This document shows, one piece after another, positions 456-11,446 of a DNA stretch of 14,590 bases. The stretch is from an uncultured Pseudomonadota bacterium (GTDB lineage Bacteria > SAR324 > NAC60-12). The stretch is taken from the NCBI GenBank assembly GCA_913020725.1, contig CAJWCD010000093.1, forward strand, positions 1-14,590. The letters are read 5' to 3'. The notes beneath the pieces are model-generated. The model worked only from the letters and a program-made list of their open reading frames with translations, made no database searches and was not told the DNA's origin. The position numbers and the translations under genes are program-made. Position 1 is the first letter of the stretch. Every line of letters begins with the position of its first letter.

Positions 456-1514
456 ATGGGCCTGAAGGCATTGTTTCAGAAGCCGACCCTGACAAGTTTG
501 GCGAAAACCTGCGGCTGAGCGGCGAAGCTCAGTCCGGTCGGGCTGTCGAAATTGTTGGAGAGTTTGCCGGTTCCGGGAAATCCGGAGGTCCTTGTGGGAT
601 TCACCACGAGCGACGACGCCGGAGTGTACCGTCTGAACGACACGCAGGCGCTGGTGGCAACGGCGGATTTCATCACACCTCCAGTGGACGATCCGGTGCT
701 GTTTGGACAGATCGCCGCCGCGAATGCGCTCAGCGATGTCTATGCAATGGGAGGAAAACCGCTGTTTTGCCTCAACCTTGTGGGGTTTCCCTCCGACAAG
801 CTGGGTCCGGAAATTCTCCACGGCATCATCGCTGGAGCGTACAGCAAGATCACGGAAGCCGGAGCCGTGTTGCTCGGTGGACACACCACTGAGGACGAGG
901 AACCGAAGTTCGGACTCTCCGTCACCGGCATGGTGCATCCGCAGCGCATTTGGCGTAACGTTGGAGCGCAACCCGGAGATGCCCTGCTGCTCACGAAACC
1001 GCTTGGCAGTGGTGTGCTTTTCAACGCGAATCTCAAAGGCTGGGTTTCGGCAGACGCGCTTCAGGAATGCCTCGATCAACTGGTGGCGCTGAATAAAGTT
1101 GCTGCCGAAACGCTTGCTGAATTCAGCGTCCACGCCTGCACCGACGTGACCGGTTTTGGACTCGCCGGACACGGTTTTGAAATGGCAAAGGGGTCCGGAG
1201 TCTCACTGGAAATGACGTTGGACGCGCTCCCGGTGTTCCGTGAAGCCCGTGAGATGTACCGACGTGGCATGACCACCGGAGTCAACCCTGCGAACCGCAC
1301 GATGGTCGGGAACTCGATCCGCTTTCCGGACAACAGTTCTGCGAAAGACCGCGAGATCGTCTTTGATCCGCAAACCAACGGGGGGCTGCTGGTGGCGCTT
1401 CCGGAAGCCGAGGCGGAGTCCGCGCTCAATGCCCTACGCGCGGCGGGAGTTGCAGCAGCGTCCAGCATCGGAAGCGTCCGGAAATTTGAAGCCGTGCATC
1501 TGAGCTTTGGCTGA
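456..1514 (+). CDS. selD: Selenide, water dikinase (selenophosphate synthetase), selenocysteine-containing
   Basis: ATG456 (or GTG453) reads MGLKALFQKPTLTSLAKTCG-U(TGA 516-518)-AAKLSP, in frame with ORF 552..1514. SelD motifs are present: GUxxK, DDAGVY, DFITP, AANALSDVYAMGG, GGHT, TDVTGFGLAGH, DPQTNGGLL. Confidence 0.96.
530..545 (+). promoter_or_regulatory. Bacterial SECIS-like hairpin of selD
   Basis: CAGUCC-GGUC-GGGCUG is a 6-bp stem (one G-U) with a G-initiated 4-nt loop. It starts after an 11-nt spacer following the UGA, and CGA(523-525)/UCG(546-548) can extend the stem. Confidence 0.75.
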
Positions 1515-1549
1515 GAGGGCTTCCGGATTGCACATCGTTTTTGAGAGAA

Positions 1550-1605
1550 CACCGAAACGCAGAGAATTTGCTCTGCGCTCTCTGTGCCTCTGCGGTGGTT
1601 TTTTT
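1550..1605 (+). terminator. Hairpin plus U7 tract after selD, built from a CTCTG(C/T)G repeat element
   Basis: CGCAGAG(1558-1564)/CTCTGCG(1571-1577) and CACCG(1550-1554)/CGGTG(1593-1597) are complementary, followed by TTTTTTT (1599-1605). The stem is irregular. Confidence 0.45.
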
Positions 1606-1615
1606 GAAGGGATGC

Positions 1616-2122
1616 ATGACTGAAGCAAAGCAAAAGCAGCGAAACTGGACAAAGATCGGGATGATTGCGGGCGGAGTGGTGCTTCTGATTGCCGTTGTGA
1701 TTGCGGTTCTCAACACCTACACCGACTTGTTTGAGGACTCTTTCAAACCCAAGCCCGAGCCTAAGCAGGTGGCGAGCAACCTCAAGTACGGAGAGCCGGA
1801 CAACGTCAATGATGACACGCCCGCCAAGGAGTTCACAGACGAGGTGATCGCCGCGTATTCCGAGTTTGAAAAGGTCTCTGCACAGATGCTGCTCGGTTCA
1901 GAATGCAGTGCGCAAATCCACATCAACGGCGGCACCGACGCCAAGTGGCGGGTGAACAAAGCCTCTGGAACCAAGGCGCTCAAGGACATTCGCAAACGGG
2001 CGGCCAAACACTCCAAGAGCCAGCGTTGCGTGGTCAGTGTGGTCTTCAATGGGGACGTGGTCATGCTTGCCAAGGGGAAGGGCAACAAAACCCAAGTCGA
2101 CTATCTGAAGAAAAAACAGTAA
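1616..2122 (+). CDS. Hypothetical protein with one N-terminal membrane anchor (168 aa)
   Basis: ATG1616 follows GAAGGGA. It has a basic N-terminus, a hydrophobic helix (IGMIAGGVVLLIAVVIAVL), a Pro/Lys linker and a Lys-rich domain with two Cys. The TTG start at 1541 given in the track runs through the repeat/terminator and is unlikely. Confidence 0.8.
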   Translation: MTEAKQKQRNWTKIGMIAGGVVLLIAVVIAVLNTYTDLFEDSFKPKPEPKQVASNLKYGEPDNVNDDTPAKEFTDEVIAAYSEFEKVSAQMLLGSECSAQIHINGGTDAKWRVNKASGTKALKDIRKRAAKHSKSQRCVVSVVFNGDVVMLAKGKGNKTQVDYLKKKQ

Positions 2123-2177
2123 GATCGGTAGCACTCAGCACCATAGCTGGCGCGACTCCACTACCCGAATTCCGTTG

Positions 2178-3200
2178 ATGAACGACTCTCCGCAGGCTGG
2201 TCCAGACCTCTCCCGTTTCAAAACCCTCGAACACTGCGCGTTCACCGATTCCGAAGGCCACTACTGCCAGGAACGTTCCGGACGAACCGGCTTGTGCTTC
2301 TGGCATGATCCGACGGTGGACAAGACCCACATGGAGGTCAAGTCGCTACTGGAGCAGCACTGCCGCGAGGGCAAATCCGGAGAGGGCTTCAAGCTGCGGG
2401 GTGTCAATCTCTCGGATGTGCATCTGGAACGTTCGGGAACCCGCATGGGTTTCAACCTCAGCTACGCCGATCTCACCCACGCCAATTTGCACGGAGCGCA
2501 CCTCTTCCGGGTGAATTTTCACCACGTCTCGCTCCACAAGGCTGATCTCAACGAGGCAAACCTCAACCGCGCCAACCTCGAACACGCCATCCTGCTCGGC
2601 ACCAAGTTCGGCGAGACGCACTTGGAGCATGTCCACTGGGGGGAGCGTGTCTTGCAGGAAGACCGCGCCCGCGAGTCTCGACGGGCCAACAAGCTCACGG
2701 CAGCGCTCACCCACTTTGAGGAGGCCGAGGAGGTCTATCGCAACCTGCGGCGTGGCGCGGAGAACCGAGGTTACTTTGAGCTGGCCGGGACGTTCTTTCA
2801 CCGCGAAATGGTGATGAACCGCCATAAGAGTCCCCTCTTTTCGTTTGCGCGCTTCCTCTCCAAGCTTGAAGATTTCGTGACCGGCTACGGAGAAAGACCC
2901 AGCCGGGTGTTGCGCTTTGCCGCGCTGCTGATCGTTTCCTACGCGCTGGCCTACTCCCTCGTCGGCATCCACGGAGACGGGCATGAAGTCATCCTAGATT
3001 CCGCCCGGACGCTGGCGGAGAACTTGGGTGATTTTGGACGCTGTGTCTATTACAGCATTGTCACCTTCACCACGCTCGGCTACGGGGATTTCATTCCCGT
3101 CAAACCGCTTGCACGCTTCTTCGCCGCCACCGAGGCACTGGTCGGCGCATTTTCCATGTCGCTCTTCATTGTTGTTTTTGTGCGCAAACGGATGCGTTAA
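2178..3200 (+). CDS. Pentapeptide-repeat protein with C-terminal two-TM potassium-channel domain
   Basis: A(D/N)Lxx repeats (ADLTH-ANLHG-AHLFR...ADLNE-ANLNR-ANLEH), a GYGERP motif, a TM helix, pore helix and filter YYSIVTFTTLGYGD (TTLGYGD at 3069-3089), and a final TM helix. Confidence 0.9.
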   Translation: MNDSPQAGPDLSRFKTLEHCAFTDSEGHYCQERSGRTGLCFWHDPTVDKTHMEVKSLLEQHCREGKSGEGFKLRGVNLSDVHLERSGTRMGFNLSYADLTHANLHGAHLFRVNFHHVSLHKADLNEANLNRANLEHAILLGTKFGETHLEHVHWGERVLQEDRARESRRANKLTAALTHFEEAEEVYRNLRRGAENRGYFELAGTFFHREMVMNRHKSPLFSFARFLSKLEDFVTGYGERPSRVLRFAALLIVSYALAYSLVGIHGDGHEVILDSARTLAENLGDFGRCVYYSIVTFTTLGYGDFIPVKPLARFFAATEALVGAFSMSLFIVVFVRKRMR

Positions 3201-3235
3201 GCTTTTCACTGCACCCCACTCTCATCGTTCCAACC

Positions 3236-3814
3236 ATGTCTCAACCCAAGCATGTGATCGCCCTCGACCTTCCGGAAATCAAGCGCGATGCGCTGGATCC
3301 ACAAATTCAAGCCTACTTCAACAAGTGCGATGAGAAGCTTGGCTTCGTCCCCAACGTGCTGCGGGCGTTTTCCCACAACGAGCAAAAACTCCAGAACTTC
3401 ATGGGGTTTTACGACGAGTTGATGCTCGGAGAATCCGAACTCAGCAAGCTGGAGCGCGAGATGATCGCGGTTGCGGTTTCTGCGGTGAACCGCTGCTTCT
3501 ACTGCCTCGTTGCACATGGCGCTGCGGTGCGCAGGCTTTCCGGAGACCCCAAACTTGGAGAACTGCTGGTGATGAACTACCGCGTCGCCGAACTGTCTGA
3601 CCGGCAGCGAGTGATGCTCGATTTTGCGGTCAAGCTCACAGAACGTCCGCACGAGATCGTTGAGGCGGATCGGCAGAAACTGCGCAACCATGAATTTTCC
3701 GAGCAGGGGCTTTGGGACATCAGCGCTGTGGCGTCCTTCTTCAACCTCAGCAACCGCATGGCTTCGGCCACGGACATGCAGCCCAACGAGGAGTACCACA
3801 CCTTCGCCCGTTGA
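3236..3814 (+). CDS. AhpD/CMD-family peroxidase-related enzyme
   Basis: LGFVPNV, LSKLEREMIAVAVSAVNRCFYCLVAH (CxxCxxxH AhpD motif), and FFNLSNRMA. Confidence 0.92.
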   Translation: MSQPKHVIALDLPEIKRDALDPQIQAYFNKCDEKLGFVPNVLRAFSHNEQKLQNFMGFYDELMLGESELSKLEREMIAVAVSAVNRCFYCLVAHGAAVRRLSGDPKLGELLVMNYRVAELSDRQRVMLDFAVKLTERPHEIVEADRQKLRNHEFSEQGLWDISAVASFFNLSNRMASATDMQPNEEYHTFAR

Positions 3815-3959
3815 TGAAAACTGACCTCTGGATGCAGCGTTTTCTCTTGAGATTCAACGGGGGATCCGTTAAAGCTCCAAGAGGTACAGACCTGAAAAGC
3901 TCCGAATTTTGCAACTCCATCAGCTTGGATCTGTAACTCCAGCTAAAAACTTAATCGTC

Positions 3960-5933
3960 ATGGCTCAAAAGCAAAAAAACATTTCTTTCAAGCATCGGCT
4001 GCAATACCGGTTCGACAACTTCATGTCAAAGGGCGGGATGGCTGTCTTCCTCGCGCTGCTCTGCTTGTTCTTCATCGCCTTCGTGATCATGTCAACGGTG
4101 CGGATGTCCGTCTTCTGGTTCTTTCCGGATGCGACCGTTGACGGACTCTCCGATCTGAACTGGCGGGTCTTCTTCCAGATCATTGATTCCGGATCACTCG
4201 CAGAACTCGACGCCGGCTCGAATTTGGCCAGCAAGCTCGTTGGCATCGTGACCATCTTCTTCGGACTGGTCCTCTTCTCCAGCATGGTCGCGTTCATTAC
4301 TCAGCAGTTCGAGGAACGGCTTACGCTGCTGCGCAAGGGTCGCAGCGCTGTGCTGGAATCCGGACACACGCTCGTGCTGGGTTTTGGAGATCGGCTCGTG
4401 GACATGTTGCGGGAGTTGATCATTGCCAATGAATCCGAGTCGGACGCCGTTGTCGTCGTGTTGGCGCAGAACGACAAGGAGCAGATGGATGACTACCTGC
4501 GCGAGCAGATTTCGGACTGGCAGAGTACCCGGATGATTGTACGCAGTGGCAACACGGCGAGTTTGCCAACCTTACGCAAGGTCGGTGTGGAACAGGCAGA
4601 CTCCATCGTGATCCTCAGCGATGCCAAACCTTCGCAGACTCTCCAAGTCAAGGAACTCGCCGATGCCCGTGTGATCAAGGCCATCATGGCCGTGCTAGCG
4701 ATCACAGGAGATCGTTCCGGAATCGCGATCGTCGCGGAACTGCACCTCATGCGCAACCGTGAACTCGCCGAGAGTGTCCAACCGGGGCGTGTCACCACTC
4801 TGGACGAAACCGATTTGCTCGCCCGCATGCTTGTGCAGACCTCCCGCAGTGTCGGATTGTCAGTGGTGTATTCCGATTTGGTGGGCTTCGAGGGTAACGA
4901 GTTCTACTTTTTCCGGCCCAAACAGGGCTGGGGACCGCTGACCTTCGGACAGCTTCAGTTGCACTTCCAACGCAGCGTTCCGCTTGGAGTCCGCAACCTC
5001 AATCACCAAATCCGCCTCAATCCCCCGCCGGACTACCCGATGCTCCCAGAGGATGAGGTGGTGATCCTTGCCGAGGATGATTCAACCATCAAGTTTTACG
5101 ACAAGGCCGTGATGGTGCCGAAAACCCTCTCCTACTCGGAACAGCGGGCGTCTGTTCCCAAGGAAAAGCACCTCATCATTCACTGGACCACCAAGACCCC
5201 GATTGTGCTGAAGGAGTACGCCTCCTACCTCACTTCCGGTTCGCAACTCCACCTCGTTGTCCAGCAAAATTCCGATGCACTGCGCCGCACCTTCACCAAA
5301 ATTGCAGAGCAGAATCAGAACGTGGCCATGCAAATCCGCGAACTCGACCTCTCTCACTATGCGGCCATCCGCGCCATTCGTCCGCATCTTTACGACACGG
5401 TGTCCATCCTCGGACGGCCCTCCGCGACTGCAGAAGAGATCGACACCCGGACTCTGCTCATCCTCCTGCAAATGCGCCGTCACTTCCGGGCCTATACAGA
5501 GGAAACGGGCGCAACCGTGACCACCAAGCTGATCACCGAGGTGGTTGAATCAGAAAACACCGAACTGGTCGTGAAAACTGGAGTCCGAGACTTTCTGCTC
5601 TCCAATCGCTTCATCTCCAAGATTTTCGCACAGGCCGCCCTCAACCCGGAAGTGATGTTCGTTTACGATCAGCTCTTCTCCGCTGAAGGCAGCGAGGTTT
5701 ACCTCAAATCGATTTTACTGTATTTTGATCCGGAAGAAGCTGGGGAGGTGACATTTGGGGATTGCATGCTCGCTGCACAAGCCCGGCAGGAGGTCTGCTT
5801 TGGCGTTAAGCTGATCGCGGACGAAGCTCACGCTGACCGCAACTTTGGCGTCCAGCTCATTCCCAAACGTGACAAACGCTTCGGCTTTGAAGCCGGCGAC
5901 TGCCTGATCACCCTCGCTGAAGACGAAAGCTAG
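3960..5933 (+). CDS. CASTOR/POLLUX/DMI1-like ion channel (TM-pore-TM plus two RCK-type domains)
   Basis: RLQYRFDNFMS, a TM helix, pore segment IIDSGSL, a second TM helix, LRKGRSAVLESGHTLVLG, RSGN, GFEGNEFY and EGSEVYL all parallel conserved blocks of plant CASTOR/POLLUX. ATG3960 is preferred over TTG3909. Confidence 0.88.
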   Translation: MAQKQKNISFKHRLQYRFDNFMSKGGMAVFLALLCLFFIAFVIMSTVRMSVFWFFPDATVDGLSDLNWRVFFQIIDSGSLAELDAGSNLASKLVGIVTIFFGLVLFSSMVAFITQQFEERLTLLRKGRSAVLESGHTLVLGFGDRLVDMLRELIIANESESDAVVVVLAQNDKEQMDDYLREQISDWQSTRMIVRSGNTASLPTLRKVGVEQADSIVILSDAKPSQTLQVKELADARVIKAIMAVLAITGDRSGIAIVAELHLMRNRELAESVQPGRVTTLDETDLLARMLVQTSRSVGLSVVYSDLVGFEGNEFYFFRPKQGWGPLTFGQLQLHFQRSVPLGVRNLNHQIRLNPPPDYPMLPEDEVVILAEDDSTIKFYDKAVMVPKTLSYSEQRASVPKEKHLIIHWTTKTPIVLKEYASYLTSGSQLHLVVQQNSDALRRTFTKIAEQNQNVAMQIRELDLSHYAAIRAIRPHLYDTVSILGRPSATAEEIDTRTLLILLQMRRHFRAYTEETGATVTTKLITEVVESENTELVVKTGVRDFLLSNRFISKIFAQAALNPEVMFVYDQLFSAEGSEVYLKSILLYFDPEEAGEVTFGDCMLAAQARQEVCFGVKLIADEAHADRNFGVQLIPKRDKRFGFEAGDCLITLAEDES

Positions 5934-5942
5934 AGAATAACC

Positions 5943-7643
5943 ATGATTAACTACGATCCAGGAAACCGGTTTCAGATCATCTTCGCCATCCACGGCACCG
6001 TCCTGCCGGCGGTTTCCAAGTACATGGCGGTCATGCTCATCTGGACAGGCGTCTTGCTGGCCGTCCATGAGTACACGGACTTGATTCCGAACGTGACGAC
6101 TCAGGCTCATGCGATGATCGGCCTCGCCCTGGGCCTCCTGCTCGTGTTCCGGACGAACACCGCCTACGACCGTTTTTGGGAAGGGCGCAAGCAACTGGGT
6201 AGCCTCGGCATTTCGACCCGCAACTTGGCAATCAAAGCGAACACCATCATTCCTGTGGAAGAACACGCCTTGCGTAGTGAGGTGGTCGCCCTCATTGGAG
6301 CTTACGGTGTCGCCCTGAAAGATTACCTGCGGGACGGGATCGACTTGGAAAAATTGGAAGATTTATCGCCCTCCATCAAAACCGATTTGAAGGGCTACAC
6401 CAACCCGCTGAATGGAATCCTGAGTTTGTTGAGCGTTCGCTTCTACTCCGGTGTTGATAAAAAATGGCTCCCTCCCCCCGTGTTTTCGGTCTTCAGCAAA
6501 AACCTCGATGAGTTGCAGGAGACCCTGCGGGCCTTGGAGCGTATTCGCACCACGCCGTTGCCGTTTGCCTATGTGAACCAGCTCAAGGTCTTCATGCTGG
6601 TTTACTTCCTGACCCTGCCTGTTGTGCTGATTCCTGCGTTCGGCTACGCCACAATTGTCGCCATGATCGTGATCATCTACGCGCTGGTCGGGATTGAGGA
6701 GATTGGCATTGAGATCGAAGACCCCTTTGGGGACGATCCCAATGACTTGCCTGTTGACAAAATCTGTCAAGGCATCCGCAAGGACGCGCGGGAGATTCTG
6801 GGGGTGTATGCGGACGAAGATGAGGGTGAGGACGAAGAGATCGCCGCGAAGGAGGTGGAAACCGATGCCGCTGTTGATGAAGGCGGAGCCGTGACCGACA
6901 CCGACACCTCCGCTCAGGAACTCGAAGCTCTGAAAACACAAACCGGAGATGTGGCCGAGGATCTGTTCCGGAAAGGGCTGCTGCTTTCCAAGACCAGTGG
7001 CGATACCATGGAGGTCTACCGCGCCTTCCACGAGGCAGCCGTGTTGGGACACGTCCGCGCCAAGTACAATCTGGGCATCCTCAATTTTAAGGGACAGGGG
7101 GTGCCAAAAAACATTGACGAAGCCTACTACTGGTTCCGGGATGCGGCAGCACATGGCAGCGCGGATGCCCGCAAGACGTTGAAATCGGTCAAAGCCCTGC
7201 GTGACAGCGAGGCCGATTTCAAGGACAACCAGAAGCCCCTCAACCCGGTCCTGATGGACACGCTCAACGAGGAGCAGCGCTTCTGGTATGCCAAGGCGAT
7301 CACGCAGATGGTAATGGTGGACGGGCGTATCGACGTTTACGAACGCACCTATTTGCACGAATCCATCAAGATGCTGGAAAATTCCGCGCACATCCAAGAA
7401 CTGGAAGAGGCGATCCTACTGGGGCGGGATTTTGAAATTGAACCCAACACCAGCTTTGCTCCGGAAGACCAAAAACGCATCTTGCAGGAATTGGTGGAAA
7501 TTGCAACAGTGGATCAGGATTTCGCTCCGCAGGAACAGAAACTCATGCAACTGATTGGCGATGCGCTGGGAGTCGCAGAGACGGACACCCACAACGTGAT
7601 CAAACAGGGTCTGACGCAGGTGCGCCAGTCCCAAAAGAGTTGA
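5943..7643 (+). CDS. Bestrophin-family channel fused to acidic linker, Sel1-like repeat(s) and TerB-like domain
   Basis: Bestrophin motifs LLVFRTNTAYDRFWEGRK, LERIRTTPLPFAY and GIEEIGIEIEDPFGDDPNDLP. Sel1 repeat GHVRAKYNLGILNFKGQGVPKNIDEAYYWFRDAAAHG. TerB-like VDGRIDVYE...IATVDQDFAPQEQKLMQLIGDALGV. Confidence 0.88.
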   Translation: MINYDPGNRFQIIFAIHGTVLPAVSKYMAVMLIWTGVLLAVHEYTDLIPNVTTQAHAMIGLALGLLLVFRTNTAYDRFWEGRKQLGSLGISTRNLAIKANTIIPVEEHALRSEVVALIGAYGVALKDYLRDGIDLEKLEDLSPSIKTDLKGYTNPLNGILSLLSVRFYSGVDKKWLPPPVFSVFSKNLDELQETLRALERIRTTPLPFAYVNQLKVFMLVYFLTLPVVLIPAFGYATIVAMIVIIYALVGIEEIGIEIEDPFGDDPNDLPVDKICQGIRKDAREILGVYADEDEGEDEEIAAKEVETDAAVDEGGAVTDTDTSAQELEALKTQTGDVAEDLFRKGLLLSKTSGDTMEVYRAFHEAAVLGHVRAKYNLGILNFKGQGVPKNIDEAYYWFRDAAAHGSADARKTLKSVKALRDSEADFKDNQKPLNPVLMDTLNEEQRFWYAKAITQMVMVDGRIDVYERTYLHESIKMLENSAHIQELEEAILLGRDFEIEPNTSFAPEDQKRILQELVEIATVDQDFAPQEQKLMQLIGDALGVAETDTHNVIKQGLTQVRQSQKS

Positions 7644-7665
7644 ACCTCGGACACAAAACTCACCA

Positions 7666-7965
7666 ATGGAAGCCGAAGAAAAAGGGGTTTACATCTACGC
7701 GAATGTGCTGGATCTCAATCAGGACGGCAAGGTGGACATGATCTCCTTTGTCGATCCCAAGGGGCGCGGTATTGCAGTGGCGGTGGACCGCTACCACGAT
7801 GGCACAATGGACCACATCCATGTGTTTCAGGATGTGACCGGCGACGGCAAGCTCGACATAGAGGACACGAAACTCATCCATCGCGAAGCTGCCAAGCTGT
7901 TCAAGCAAACCGATCTCGCGGAAGGCCAGATTGAACTCTTCATCGAGGACGCCGGTTACGGTTGA
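7666..7965 (+). CDS. Small acidic protein with three DxxxDG (EF-hand/dockerin-like) putative Ca2+-binding loops
   Basis: DLNQDGKVD, DRYHDGTMD and DVTGDGKLDIED within 99 aa. Starts 22 nt after the bestrophin fusion on the same strand. No signal peptide is seen. Confidence 0.8.
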   Translation: MEAEEKGVYIYANVLDLNQDGKVDMISFVDPKGRGIAVAVDRYHDGTMDHIHVFQDVTGDGKLDIEDTKLIHREAAKLFKQTDLAEGQIELFIEDAGYG

Positions 7966-7977
7966 GCTTGGAACGGA

Positions 7978-8370
7978 TCAATCGATGATGAGGGAGAAGC
8001 GAACTTTCGGGCGGTCGCTTGCGGGCCCAACATGGCAGCCGTCCGGAGGTGTGTAACGGGGGCGGGCCTGACAGGTGGTCGCCTGATGGTGATGGTACTC
8101 CAGAGTCTGGGTGGTCCGAGCCAGTGCGGCATCGACCCGCACGTTGGTGCGGCGGCGGTAGGCGCGGTCACAGGCGAGAACCTCCTGCGCCCGTGTGAGG
8201 TGCCGACACGCAGCATGTTCCGGAATGCGCTCGTACACCAGCATCTCCTGCTGCGTTTTCTGACAACCAGAAAACAACAGCAGCCCCAACCCCAGCCCCA
8301 CACTCTTACTCCAATTCCAGCACAAAACACCTGCAGAGTGATGCTCCGCGCTTACTGAATTTTCACGCAT
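7978..8370 (-). CDS. Putative small lipoprotein
   Basis: KSVGLGLGLLLFSG-C is lipobox-like (Cys codon at 8265-8263), followed by about 95 aa with four more Cys. The start is uncertain (ATG8370 or TTG8325). It fills the gap between neighbouring genes without overlapping 7666..7965. Confidence 0.55.
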   Translation of the reverse strand: MRENSVSAEHHSAGVLCWNWSKSVGLGLGLLLFSGCQKTQQEMLVYERIPEHAACRHLTRAQEVLACDRAYRRRTNVRVDAALARTTQTLEYHHHQATTCQARPRYTPPDGCHVGPASDRPKVRFSLIID

Positions 8371-8593
8371 GGGACAAGACAATCTGGATGTGATCCTCCA
8401 CAACATGGAGCGCAAGCCGGAGGACTGGCACCTGGATGACTTCCGGGCGCGACACCAAGGGGGAGTGAGCATTTGGCTGGGAGGGGGCATCTTGGGGTAC
8501 CATATTGAAAAGCCGCAATATCAGGAGTTTGGGTTGCGGGATCGCTTTCGACTGCACAAGCACATCAAAGCCCTCCGCGCACGGCAGTCCTGA
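8369..8593 (+). CDS. Hypothetical protein (74 aa)
   Basis: Protein-like composition and GC3-rich codons. It ends directly against the stop of the convergent FGE-domain gene. No family recognised. Confidence 0.6.
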   Translation: MGQDNLDVILHNMERKPEDWHLDDFRARHQGGVSIWLGGGILGYHIEKPQYQEFGLRDRFRLHKHIKALRARQS

Positions 8594-10021
8594 TCACTCC
8601 GGACGCTGATCGGACGCGCAGCGGAAGCCAATGTCCGCAGCGGTTTGGGCAGGAGAGGCGTCGTCGCGTGAGGCCGAGCGCAACTGCTCCGGGCCATCTT
8701 TCCACGAACCTCCGCGCAACACCCGATACTTGCCCTGCTGCGGACCCAAAGGATCGGGAGCAGGGTTCGAGGCATACGATTCGTACCAGTCCCAAACCCA
8801 CTCGCGGGCGTTGCCGTGCATGTCGAAAAGCTCCAGCGGGCTAGGCATCAACTCTGCTACAGGACGGGTGGTCGTGGCGTTCTTGCGATACCAGCCATAG
8901 TCCATCAAGAAGGCCGGGTCATCCCCGAAGGAGTAAAGCTTCTCATCACCGGCACGGGCGGCTTTTTCCCATTCGGCTTCGGAGGGCAGGCGCTTGCCCA
9001 AGGCATTGCAGAAGTAGCGGGCGGCAAACCACGAAACGTGGGTCACGGGCTGCCATTCCTGACCAAACTGCGGTTGCAGGTCGTCCTCCCAGTGGGCAAG
9101 GTAGTGTCCGTTGTGGAACTTGCGGGGAAAGGTGCTTTTACGTAAAATCGGCTCGGCGGCAGCCATTTTCAGGAAATCGTAGTTCGTGACCTCGCAGCGA
9201 TCAATCCAAAACTCCTTCACGAGAACATTGCGCACGGGGCGTTCGTCCGCCTCTCCGGATTCGGAACCCATCCGGAACGGACCTTCCGGCACAAAGACCA
9301 TGCCACCCGTCACCTCGTGTGCAGAACCCTTGGGCGGCAGGGTGCATCTCGATTCCAACTCATCCACAAAATCGAGCGGCAGCGTCGCTTCCTCTGGAAA
9401 CAGCTTCTTCTCCAAGCTGGCCAGCAGGGCATGGTAGAGCTTGAGCAGTTCGGGGTCCAGTGACGTGACACGCACCAGCAACCCCCGCTCGTCCCGCCCG
9501 CAACGGTACTTGTCCTTGAGGCAACGTAGTTTCTGGCGAATCCACACCCGGATCGCATCCCGCGCATTGTGCCGCTCGATTTCCCGGATCAGGAAGGGTT
9601 CAGTCTCATAGTAGATGGATTCAAACACCTTCGGAAGCATGAGCTGCTGCTTGGCGAGGTCCACCAACTCATCGTAGCGTCGACAGAATCCGATTTGATT
9701 TTCTGGAACCTCCGATCCAAAGGCCCGGTGCCGTGAGCAGGCTTTGGTTTCAGATTTGTTGTTAATGCCGAGCTTGGACTGGAAGATGCGGTAGCGCAGT
9801 TCGTAAATCTCATGAACCATCGGGTAACGCTCGCCTTTGAGGACGTAGCCCACAAACTCCTTGACCGTCTGCTCCCGGAACTCCTTGGCGAGGTTGGCAA
9901 AGGTCCGAGTGGCACCCCACGCAATCAGGGCGGCCCCCAACAGTCCAAAGACACTGAGCAGCAGGGTGCGCTTGGAAGTGCGTAGCAGGTGGTGCAAAGA
10001 AGCCAATGTTAGAGATTTCAT
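8594..10021 (-). CDS. Membrane-anchored formylglycine-generating-enzyme (SUMF1/FGE-sulfatase) domain protein
   Basis: N-terminal hydrophobic helix. C-terminal FGE motifs GPFRMGS, EVTN, PVTHVSWFAARYFC, RLPSEAEWEKAAR, LFDMHGNAREW, RVLRGGSW and IGFRCA. Confidence 0.9.
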   Translation of the reverse strand: MKSLTLASLHHLLRTSKRTLLLSVFGLLGAALIAWGATRTFANLAKEFREQTVKEFVGYVLKGERYPMVHEIYELRYRIFQSKLGINNKSETKACSRHRAFGSEVPENQIGFCRRYDELVDLAKQQLMLPKVFESIYYETEPFLIREIERHNARDAIRVWIRQKLRCLKDKYRCGRDERGLLVRVTSLDPELLKLYHALLASLEKKLFPEEATLPLDFVDELESRCTLPPKGSAHEVTGGMVFVPEGPFRMGSESGEADERPVRNVLVKEFWIDRCEVTNYDFLKMAAAEPILRKSTFPRKFHNGHYLAHWEDDLQPQFGQEWQPVTHVSWFAARYFCNALGKRLPSEAEWEKAARAGDEKLYSFGDDPAFLMDYGWYRKNATTTRPVAELMPSPLELFDMHGNAREWVWDWYESYASNPAPDPLGPQQGKYRVLRGGSWKDGPEQLRSASRDDASPAQTAADIGFRCASDQRPE

Positions 10022-10123: not shown

Positions 10124-11446
10124 ATGTTTCGCTTCTTCAAAGATACGTCCGGATGGCTACCGAATTATCTACGGTTTCGGCTGAAGACGCCTTTTCCAGA
10201 CCTTGCAGATCAACAAACTCCGCCGGAAATGCCCCCGACGCGGGAGTGGTTGGACGAACGCCTCTGTCCGCTCGTGCAAGGTAACGGACTTTTCCTTGGT
10301 TGCCCAGCAGTTGACGAGGAATCTCGCCGCCGGGTGCGCAAGCTCCAGTTTCCAGACCAGCAGGGCGGAACACTTTTCCTCTACCTGGACACGCTGGGAA
10401 CCCTCAGTTTTTCTGAGGAACTGCTGCTGCATACACAGCCGGGACCGTATGCGGAACGGATGACTCGTTGGGTGCTGCGGCTTCTGCGTTTTCATCTGCC
10501 CAATCGGGAATTCCGGATTCCGGAAACCGTTGCCCTCGACCAACTGCTGGCCAGCAACGAGGTGCTGCTAGGCGCGCTACGCTTGCTGGAAGACGGTTTG
10601 TTGGAGCAGATTCCAGTCGCAGGCTACACTTTTCAGGATCGGCAGAACCTGTTCGTCTTTCCCCGACTCTACGCTTTTTTGGTGTGGTCCGATTCGATCC
10701 TCCGGGGCACAGAAACCCCGCTGACCGCGATTCACGCCACCGAAGCGGAGGTGAACGAGGACTGCCTGGTGGCCTTTGCCGCACTGATTTGGTCGGATGA
10801 GGTGCTGGCGGATGTGGAACGCGAGGTGCTGGGCAAATACCTACGCCAATCTGGACTCCCCAAAGCACGGCAGGCGGAACTTGAAAAACAGTTGTTTGAG
10901 CCGCTGACTCCGGAAACCCTGCAACTACGACTGGAACCTCCCATCTTGCGACGCTTCCTGTTGGAGCAACTCGTCCTGCTCGCTCTGATCGACGCGCAAG
11001 AGGCGTGGCAGGAACAAGTGCTAATCGCACACATCGCGCAGCGACTGGATGTGACTCCGGACACGTTGGAGGCAATCTATGCCTCCGTAGGCGTGTTCTA
11101 TGCTGAGTACGGTGAACGCTTCAGTTTCCTGCGGGATAATCCGGCGCTGCGGCAGCTCAAGGATTTCTCGAGCGATCTGATCACCCGACGGGTCAAGAAA
11201 AACCTCGATCGCGTGATGCAGGAAATCCAGGAAACCCGAGAGCTCTACGATCTGCTCATGAAGACGACCACCACAAAGCTCTCTGTCGCAGAAAAGCAAA
11301 AAGTGCAGGAGCAACTGCTCGATATCGCCAAGACAATCCCGGCTCTGGCGATTTTTGTGCTTCCCGGAGGCGGGTTGTTGTTGCCCATTCTCATCAAGAT
11401 CCTGCCCTTCAATCTGCTCCCCAGTTCCTTTCACGAAGAAACCTGA
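10124..11446 (+). CDS. TerB-like plus LETM1-like domain protein
   Basis: TerB-like helices LIWSDEVLADVEREVL...LALIDAQEAWQEQVLIAHIAQRL. The C-terminal LLDIAKTIPALAIFVLPGGGLLLPILIKILPFNLLPSSF resembles the proline-rich LETM1 membrane segment that ends in LPSTF. Confidence 0.75.
   Translation: MFRFFKDTSGWLPNYLRFRLKTPFPDLADQQTPPEMPPTREWLDERLCPLVQGNGLFLGCPAVDEESRRRVRKLQFPDQQGGTLFLYLDTLGTLSFSEELLLHTQPGPYAERMTRWVLRLLRFHLPNREFRIPETVALDQLLASNEVLLGALRLLEDGLLEQIPVAGYTFQDRQNLFVFPRLYAFLVWSDSILRGTETPLTAIHATEAEVNEDCLVAFAALIWSDEVLADVEREVLGKYLRQSGLPKARQAELEKQLFEPLTPETLQLRLEPPILRRFLLEQLVLLALIDAQEAWQEQVLIAHIAQRLDVTPDTLEAIYASVGVFYAEYGERFSFLRDNPALRQLKDFSSDLITRRVKKNLDRVMQEIQETRELYDLLMKTTTTKLSVAEKQKVQEQLLDIAKTIPALAIFVLPGGGLLLPILIKILPFNLLPSSFHEET

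Follow-up and report, generated by a model that had tools for sequence, protein, structure and literature searches.

Gene Organization of the Locus

The stretch of DNA analyzed here (the window) is the entire 14,590-nucleotide (nt) contig CAJWCD010000093.1 of an uncultured SAR324 bacterium (NAC60-12), whose 3.4-Mb genome is represented by a 93% complete assembly of 204 contigs (GCA_913020725.1). The subject is a group of three genes on the plus strand: gene 1 (3960..5933), encoding a CASTOR/POLLUX-like channel of 657 amino acids (aa); gene 2 (5943-7643), encoding a bestrophin–Sel1–TerB fusion of 566 aa; and gene 3 (7666..7965), encoding a single-copy 99-aa protein. An earlier note, made without database searches, had described three co-oriented genes with gaps of 9 and 22 nt, and the coordinates and strands of the open reading frames (ORFs) agree with it. 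The family assignments of that note also hold: Castor_Poll_mid and Slo-like RCK in gene 1 (PF06241 and PF22614, with Protein Data Bank (PDB) matches), and Bestrophin_2, one Sel1 and TerB in gene 2, are all above the Pfam cut-offs.

The Bestrophin–Sel1–TerB Fusion

Gene 2 consists of four consecutive plus-strand segments. The bestrophin domain of the KpBest type (aa 1–288, 5943..6806) is full length: PF25539 is matched with an E-value of 4e-68 and 230 bits over model positions 8–287 of 288, and the KpBest match (E about 2e-31) extends over aa 10–287. An acidic linker with Asp or Glu at 17 of its 47 residues (aa 289–335, 6807..6947) represents the fusion junction. It is followed by a Sel1-like helical repeat domain (aa 336–420, 6948..7202; PF08238 above the cut-off) and by a TerB-like, probably helical domain (aa 421–566, 7203..7643) with acidic motifs that are conserved in an alignment of 21 tails; for this domain, PF05099 gives 40.5 bits against a cut-off of 24.4. 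The model of the tail has a predicted local distance difference test score (pLDDT) of 88; its first 80–90 residues match Sel1 proteins, and the Sel1 helical-hairpin fold was recovered with 6orc (Z 15.7, root-mean-square deviation 1.2 over 80 residues). The Pfam match of TerB spans only aa 503–550, and the fold lists are filled by the Sel1 half; TerB clusters of the Atlas reached 0.84–0.86, which can be taken as a lead only. The literature search yielded no source on the binding of metals by TerB.

Because the window is a single short contig from a fragmented assembly, an artificial joining of two genes during assembly might be suspected. This possibility was ruled out and is practically negligible, given that the same fusion is whole in genomes G001 and G002 (90–94% identical) and in metagenome loci L196 and L197, and its junction is bridged by a contig from an independent run. 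Among 120 listed clusters (656 matches, 8,000 scored candidates), the three-domain bestrophin fusion occurs in three, which are 89–99% identical; one of them is the window's own cluster.

Origin of the Sel1–TerB Tail

Residues 336–566 of gene 2 match the C-terminus of a channel of about 840 aa that contains a two-helix GYG pore, two RCK domains, Sel1, and TerB, and which we take to be an RCK-regulated two-helix K+ channel of the MthK/GsuK type. The gene 2 tail is homologous to these K+-channel tails from end to end (33–60% identity), and its Sel1 part is 55–61% identical to the closest of them. When tail and head searches are combined, the tailed channel occurs in six other genera, with 22 of the 34 family genomes outside the genus encoding it; 19 tailed-channel ORFs (834–905 aa) from 13 genomes were translated. 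Tail-less channel homologues of 567–585 aa occur in other genera (G005, G009, and G060). Searches of the three own-genus genomes did not detect the head of the K+ channel, and a tblastn search of G000 did not recover it either. The intact bestrophins of 11 genomes from other genera are tail-less orthologues, with open frames of 291–358 aa that are too short for the tail; the bestrophin domain of gene 2 is 53–57% identical to other-genus orthologues, with one at about 30%.

As judged from these comparisons, gene 2 is a chimera in which an ordinary bestrophin is joined to the Sel1–TerB tail of the family's K+ channel. Parsimony suggests a transfer of the tail, in the ancestor of the genus, from the K+ channel to the bestrophin, because the channel is widespread, the orthologous bestrophins are tail-less, and the channel head was not found in the genus. 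In the best tree of 22 tails, the fused tails are sister to the channel tails of genus g5, with support of 81/91 and 52–60% identity. The tree based on bestrophin domains did not resolve the sister genus. A head-to-head arrangement of the bestrophin and channel genes, with about 250 nt between them, occurs in two g5 genomes, and one inversion would be enough to produce the fusion from it. An inversion or deletion between neighboring bestrophin and channel genes is one plausible route.

Among the three own-genus genomes, the ratio of nonsynonymous to synonymous substitution rates is 0.04–0.07 for Sel1, 0.06–0.08 for TerB, and 0.05–0.17 for the linker, and the linker and tail are kept in frame over synonymous distances of 0.3–1.4. 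These low ratios indicate that selection has maintained the tail since the fusion. Purifying selection shows that the tail is useful; it says nothing of the gating of the pore.

The tailed K+ channel often occurs in two copies per genome (e.g., L031:6313-8841 in G022; homologues L176–L192). In genus g2, a protein of about 507 aa is encoded just upstream of it (L179:6592-8115, L181:6783-8300), and this protein weakly resembles the second half of gene 1.

The Bestrophin Domain and Ca2+

A clasp-like motif, IEDPFGDDPND, is located at aa 258–268 of gene 2, and 11 of 12 aligned orthologues, tailed or tail-less, share it unchanged. The acidic Ca2+ clasp of animal BEST1 comprises E300–D304 according to PMC6591409 and PMC10420675. 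Equivalents of P297, G299, D301, and D304 are kept in the window, and positions 302/303 are Pro/Asn (GDDPND). The same loop links gene 2 to KpBest (4WD7/4WD8, 6IV series; PF25539), since P261, G263, and D268 correspond to P262, G264, and D269 of KpBest. The difference from KpBest lies in the 278 extra C-terminal residues of gene 2, comprising the linker, Sel1, and TerB, which come from the K+ channel family.

The CASTOR-Like Channel

Gene 1 resembles the plant CASTOR/POLLUX/DMI1 channels (LjCASTOR 6O6J/6O7C, MtDMI1 7VM8, PF06241) in its tandem RCK domains, the lack of TVGYG, and the Ca(II)/Ca(III) ligands. It matches the gating ring of LjCASTOR (6o6j) with an E-value of 1.8e-49 over both RCK halves, and 6o7c and 7vm8 as well (E 1e-49 to 1e-46); PF06241 scores 85.8 bits against a cut-off of 26.7. 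Hydropathy analysis indicated two hydrophobic segments (aa 20–56 and 87–115) around the pore loop IIDSGSLAELD, which has no GYG or TVGYG, and the two RCK domains are located C-terminal to this pore. The pore-filter motif of the plant channels, which may be similar to this loop, is not given in the three papers searched for it.

The cluster II ligands of LjCASTOR are S345, E493, E552, D553, and D554, and the Ca(I) ligands are D442 and D444, as given in PMC6697748. Their equivalents in gene 1 were mapped by hand via a HMMER alignment; an offset of 311 was applied, in agreement with the residues that the paper names. The equivalents of the Ca(II)/Ca(III) ligands lie at 4434..5081 on the plus strand: S159 (4434), E314 (4899), and E372-D373-D374 (5073-5081). 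Among 24 aligned bacterial homologues, S159 is kept in 21, E314 in all, and E372, D373, and D374 in 23 each. In place of the two Ca(I) aspartates, D442 and D444, gene 1 has L263 and R265, and Asp occurs in only 2 of the 24 homologues at each column. In PMC6697748, an activating role of cluster II and an inhibitory role of Ca(I) are put forward as speculation, and the two-helix construct LjCASTOR-2TM is recorded as a Ca2+-regulated Ca2+ channel; the natural two-helix form of gene 1 resembles this construct. Compared with plant CASTOR, gene 1 is bacterial and known from sequence, has two predicted helices instead of four, lacks the Ca(I) ligands, and belongs to a group with a variable pore loop.

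By its predicted architecture, gene 1 is a natural two-helix, two-RCK protein of the CASTOR type. It is reasonable to expect gating by Ca2+, because the Ca(II)/Ca(III) ligands are kept and the two-helix construct conducts. Selectivity for Ca2+ does not follow, because the pore loop varies among the homologues; in cyanobacterial ones it is three residues shorter.

Filamentous cyanobacteria commonly have homologues that are about 50% identical to gene 1, and the closest titled relatives are from Deltaproteobacteria and SAR324. The existence of bacterial homologues was reportedly noted when DMI1 was cloned. In G015, one CASTOR-like copy (G015:C173:4260-6212) is broken by stop codons and frameshifts, alongside an intact copy on another contig.

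The 99-aa Protein

The product of gene 3 had been described in the earlier note as an EF-hand-like protein with three DxxxDG loops. Three such acidic loops are indeed present (aa 16–24, 41–49, and 56–67), with only loop 1 strictly following the Dx[DN]xDG pattern. Among 25 aligned homologues, loop 1 fits this pattern in 22 and loop 2 in one, and loop 3 is an invariant DxTxDGxxDxxD (25/25) with Thr at position 3. The EF-hand assignment does not stand. In the model (37 sequences, pLDDT 88), strands occupy residues 8–15, 25–29, 35–40, 50–53, and 87–93, and a helix occupies residues 65–79; loops 1 and 2 are strand–strand turns, and loop 3 leads into the helix. A canonical EF-hand is excluded because in the model strands, and no helix, precede every loop. 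The Pfam EF-hand matches reach 15–16 bits against cut-offs of 26–30, and all EF-hand, dockerin, and FG-GAP matches in Pfam are below the cut-off. The profile search of the PDB gave only EF-hand and dockerin loop matches with E-values of 0.0035 or weaker, and the fold searches with the model gave no match at E 0.001 (best Z 5.0), which is no proof of a new fold. Neither a hydrophobic segment nor a signal peptide was detected in the protein.

The Dx[DN]xDG motif binds Ca2+ across several families, including EF-hands, dockerins, and calcium blades (PMC3123361). Loop 1 matches the motif and is placed between two strands, like the calcium blades of that source, and loop 3, like a dockerin half site, has a strand–loop–helix arrangement. 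Unlike EF-hand, dockerin, and calcium-blade proteins, gene 3 has no helix–loop–helix, propeller, or signal peptide, and its model is a small alpha/beta protein. By analogy with these motifs, the strong conservation of loops 1 and 3 makes the binding of Ca2+ or another divalent metal likely. A structural or a buffering role is no less possible than one in sensing.

Gene 3 is a single-copy gene confined to one SAR324 family (29 of the 88 phylum genomes, one match each). A profile search of 1.84 billion representatives revealed 73 matches, mostly short repeated-loop ones in long proteins. Among the proteins retrieved, P0170 and P0218, each about 170 aa long, resemble tandem duplications of the 99-aa domain.

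Synteny of the Three Genes

The same 61 genomes were searched with each of the three proteins, and matches were found for gene 3 in 28 genomes, for gene 1 in 25 (two of them with weak matches only), and for the bestrophin domain in 15. Genes 1, 2, and 3 follow one another in this order in all three own-genus genomes and in none of the eight other family genomes that carry all three genes (G003, G004, G015, G016, G020, G022, G024, and G026, from three other genera). In each of these eight, the three genes are on separate contigs, with unrelated genes in the flanks examined; these flanks comprise all but the gene 1 flank of G015, extend only 1.5 kb beside gene 3 in G004 and G026, and are limited by a nearby contig end at the G004 bestrophin. 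In seven family genomes (68–94% complete), gene 3 was matched but neither of the channel queries was. The downstream neighbors of gene 3 are constant across four genera and the upstream neighbor differs in each genus, which suggests that gene 3 is the older resident of the locus.

The neighborhoods of CASTOR-like genes were surveyed in 62 loci from many phyla, 60 of them outside the own genus; many of these loci are short, and related ones are not independent. Neither gene 3 nor the Sel1–TerB tail was found in any of the 60 outside loci. A bestrophin gene lies directly upstream of the CASTOR-like gene in two of them (both from Microseira, one split), and a bestrophin fragment lies 3.5 kb away in one more. 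A general pairing of CASTOR-like genes with bestrophins was therefore rejected.

The earlier note had proposed a coupled three-part module of channel, counter-ion channel, and Ca2+ sensor. With the gene order confined to the own genus, a conserved three-gene Ca2+-signalling operon is not supported, and the case for a conserved Ca2+ circuit at the operon level is far less strong than it first seemed. The module could still be specific to the genus: Ca2+ entering through the CASTOR-like channel would be sensed by the 99-aa protein, which would bind the tail and open the bestrophin as a counter-ion path, and selection would have gathered the three genes. The tight gaps kept in the genus, the conserved Ca2+ ligands of gene 1, the invariant acidic loops 1 and 3 of gene 3, the clasp-like motif of the bestrophin, its recurrence beside a CASTOR-like gene in Microseira, and the adjacency of gene 3 and a TerB gene in G010 all speak for such a unit. 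However, synteny is absent from all eight genomes outside the genus, seven family genomes have gene 3 without either channel match, the other CASTOR-like loci have neither gene 3 nor the tail, and gene 3 is not an EF-hand. Moreover, the clasp-like motif is the same in the tail-less orthologues, and KpBest is reported in PMC6081419 to be active without Ca2+. We therefore consider such a unit improbable. A related scenario, in which the K+-channel module moved to the bestrophin in this genus and selection gathered sensor, bestrophin, and CASTOR-type Ca2+ channel into one transcript, as a circuit of Ca2+-induced excitability that is still being assembled, is considered improbable as well.

A neutral explanation is also conceivable: a rearrangement may have set the genes side by side, the tail being a harmless passenger or an autonomous module that the bestrophin merely tethers to the membrane. 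The very variable neighbors of CASTOR-like genes, the changing upstream neighbors of gene 3, and the long acidic linker agree with this. In addition, a 572-bp insert (L029:6799-7370) splits the junction of genes 1 and 2 in G001. It carries a minimal nucleotidyltransferase gene and is a later insertion, because it is flanked by a perfect 23-bp repeat of the 3' end of gene 1. Neutral shuffling is nevertheless unlikely, as the fusion is in frame and its linker and tail have been under purifying selection over the synonymous distances given above.

Several other channel genes were noted around CASTOR-like genes. In Microseira (L133:3525-7975 and L128), the order is bestrophin, CASTOR-like gene, and a convergent gene for a six-helix channel with a TLEGW filter; in the SAR324 genome G009 (L055:5052-8015), a TLEGW channel gene follows the CASTOR-like gene after 19 nt. 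These neighborhoods of TLEGW, CASTOR-like, and bestrophin genes suggest recurring ion-channel clusters. In 12 of the 62 loci (L121, L129, L139, L140, L142, L143, L149, L150, L152, L153, L155, and L161), a gene for an MscS-type mechanosensitive channel, or pieces of it, lies within 5 kb of a cyanobacterial CASTOR-like gene; three members were checked with Pfam.

Transcription

Part of the window is contained in 20 of 23 listed RNA runs, and the best holders are seawater samples, in keeping with a marine SAR324 genome. In four runs, contigs of RNA libraries include portions of all the genes and span the junction of genes 2 and 3; one of these contigs also runs through an ORF on the opposite strand, and DNA may be present. 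The junction of genes 1 and 2 was not bridged among the 32 of 65 RNA-run pieces inspected (contigs of four runs). A promoter scan of 1400–8700 gave no sigma-70-like sites against 2.2 expected by chance and is uninformative; no terminators beyond chance were found inside the three genes. It is the short gaps that suggest that the three genes are probably read as one transcript in the own genus.

Genomic Context and a Possible Role in Defence

Upstream of gene 1, the window encodes a protein with pentapeptide repeats and, at its C-terminus, a TTLGYG two-helix pore (2175..3200, plus strand), identified by Pfam and genome searches; it also has an N-terminal Cys/His-rich segment. The earlier note had placed a GYG K+-channel gene just upstream on the same strand; the strand is correct, but the genes are not directly adjacent, as a CMD/AhpD peroxidase-related gene (3236..3814, plus strand; TIGR01926 205 bits against a cut-off of 82) and a 145-nt gap intervene before gene 1. 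The CMD gene is decayed in G002. The pentapeptide channel is present in all three own-genus genomes, in none of the 22 other family genomes searched, and in 6 of the 16 sister-family genomes (at 43–47%).

Downstream of gene 3 there are two small conserved ORFs, 7978-8358 on the minus strand and 8369-8593 on the plus strand, which have no Pfam or NCBIfam match and are kept beside the 99-aa gene in four genera (g1, g2, g5, and g12). A LETM1-related protein is encoded at 10124-11446; an internal stretch of it weakly resembles the TerB-like tail (hhalign probability 38%), and its gene remains near the 99-aa gene in several genera.

Depolarization-type defence had also been considered in the earlier note, and the three genes could belong to an anti-phage system acting by depolarization, Hailong-like or based on another pore. 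Several channels are encoded within 6 kb, the pentapeptide channel has a weak HalA match over its pore part (18.8 bits against a cut-off of 250), and a nucleotidyltransferase gene follows gene 1 in G001. However, no PADLOC model supports defence: PADLOC 2023 gives only weak ThsA Macro-domain matches for gene 1 (E 0.001–0.004). Hailong is described as a two-gene halA–halB operon in PMC13434031, whereas the genes flanking the pentapeptide channel have no nucleotidyltransferase match, and the G001 nucleotidyltransferase gene sits in the insert with its 23-bp target duplication. The flanking genes are housekeeping ones (selD-like, kdtA, and comF-like), the G+C content of the genes is 0.54–0.57 against 0.57 for the genome, and the genes are single-copy and vertically kept. 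All this makes a defence function very unlikely.

Discussion

In the reading that we prefer, with a probability of roughly 0.6, the locus is a cluster for ion homeostasis that is young, specific to the genus, and equipped with a rewired bestrophin. Three parts with separate histories would have been gathered in one SAR324 genus. Gene 1 would encode a cation channel that assembles as a tetramer and is opened when cytoplasmic Ca2+ acts on the conserved cluster II sites. The Sel1–TerB tail may act as a cytoplasmic regulatory or docking module, and the fusion would have put the bestrophin pentamer under a partner or metal signal that formerly acted on the K+ channel. The 99-aa protein may be a cytoplasmic protein binding Ca2+ or another divalent metal and acting independently of both channels. 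The cluster would serve ion, osmotic, or membrane-potential homeostasis without an obligatory Ca2+ relay.

Several observations weigh against parts of this proposal. The own-genus genomes are 89–93% complete, so that the K+-channel head can be called not found there, short of a proven loss. The approximately unbiased test (p = 0.12) leaves room for a position of the fused tail outside the main group of channel tails. Head-to-head adjacency of bestrophin and channel genes is found in only two of five g5-type loci and may not be ancestral; the g5-like metagenome bestrophins of L198–L200 (76–93% identical to the g5 proteins, two of them with short flanks) have no channel gene next door. Finally, more coupling than we propose is hinted at by the Microseira bestrophins directly upstream of CASTOR-like genes (two loci of one genus) and by a stand-alone TerB-domain gene directly after gene 3 in G010 (L081:5031-5823), which makes a second instance of this adjacency.

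No published account of a fusion of bestrophin with Sel1–TerB or with a potassium channel was found in a search that covered mostly freely available text, apart from supplements, and the papers searched do not mention the tailed K+ channel of about 840 aa. Within the same scope, the titles and abstracts retrieved included none on SAR324 channels or bacterial CASTOR homologues, and PMC8644588, PMC9407390, and PMC7935092 contributed nothing further. The domain swap between bestrophin and K+ channel is real and apparently undescribed, and gene 1 is a promising bacterial CASTOR homologue.

The small two-helix CASTOR homologues of bacteria keep the proposed activating Ca2+ sites without the proposed inhibitory one. 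They could be used to test the model of activating and inhibitory sites in the symbiosis channels of plants, and they may suit structural work on full-length proteins. The tail of the SAR324 K+ channel is shared with the bestrophin, and in the own genus only this tail was found, on a pentameric channel of an unrelated fold. The swap appears to be a clear, datable case of a cytoplasmic module that moved between unrelated channel folds, from a tetrameric K+ channel to a pentameric bestrophin, and would thus be a natural experiment on what TerB-like domains do on channels.

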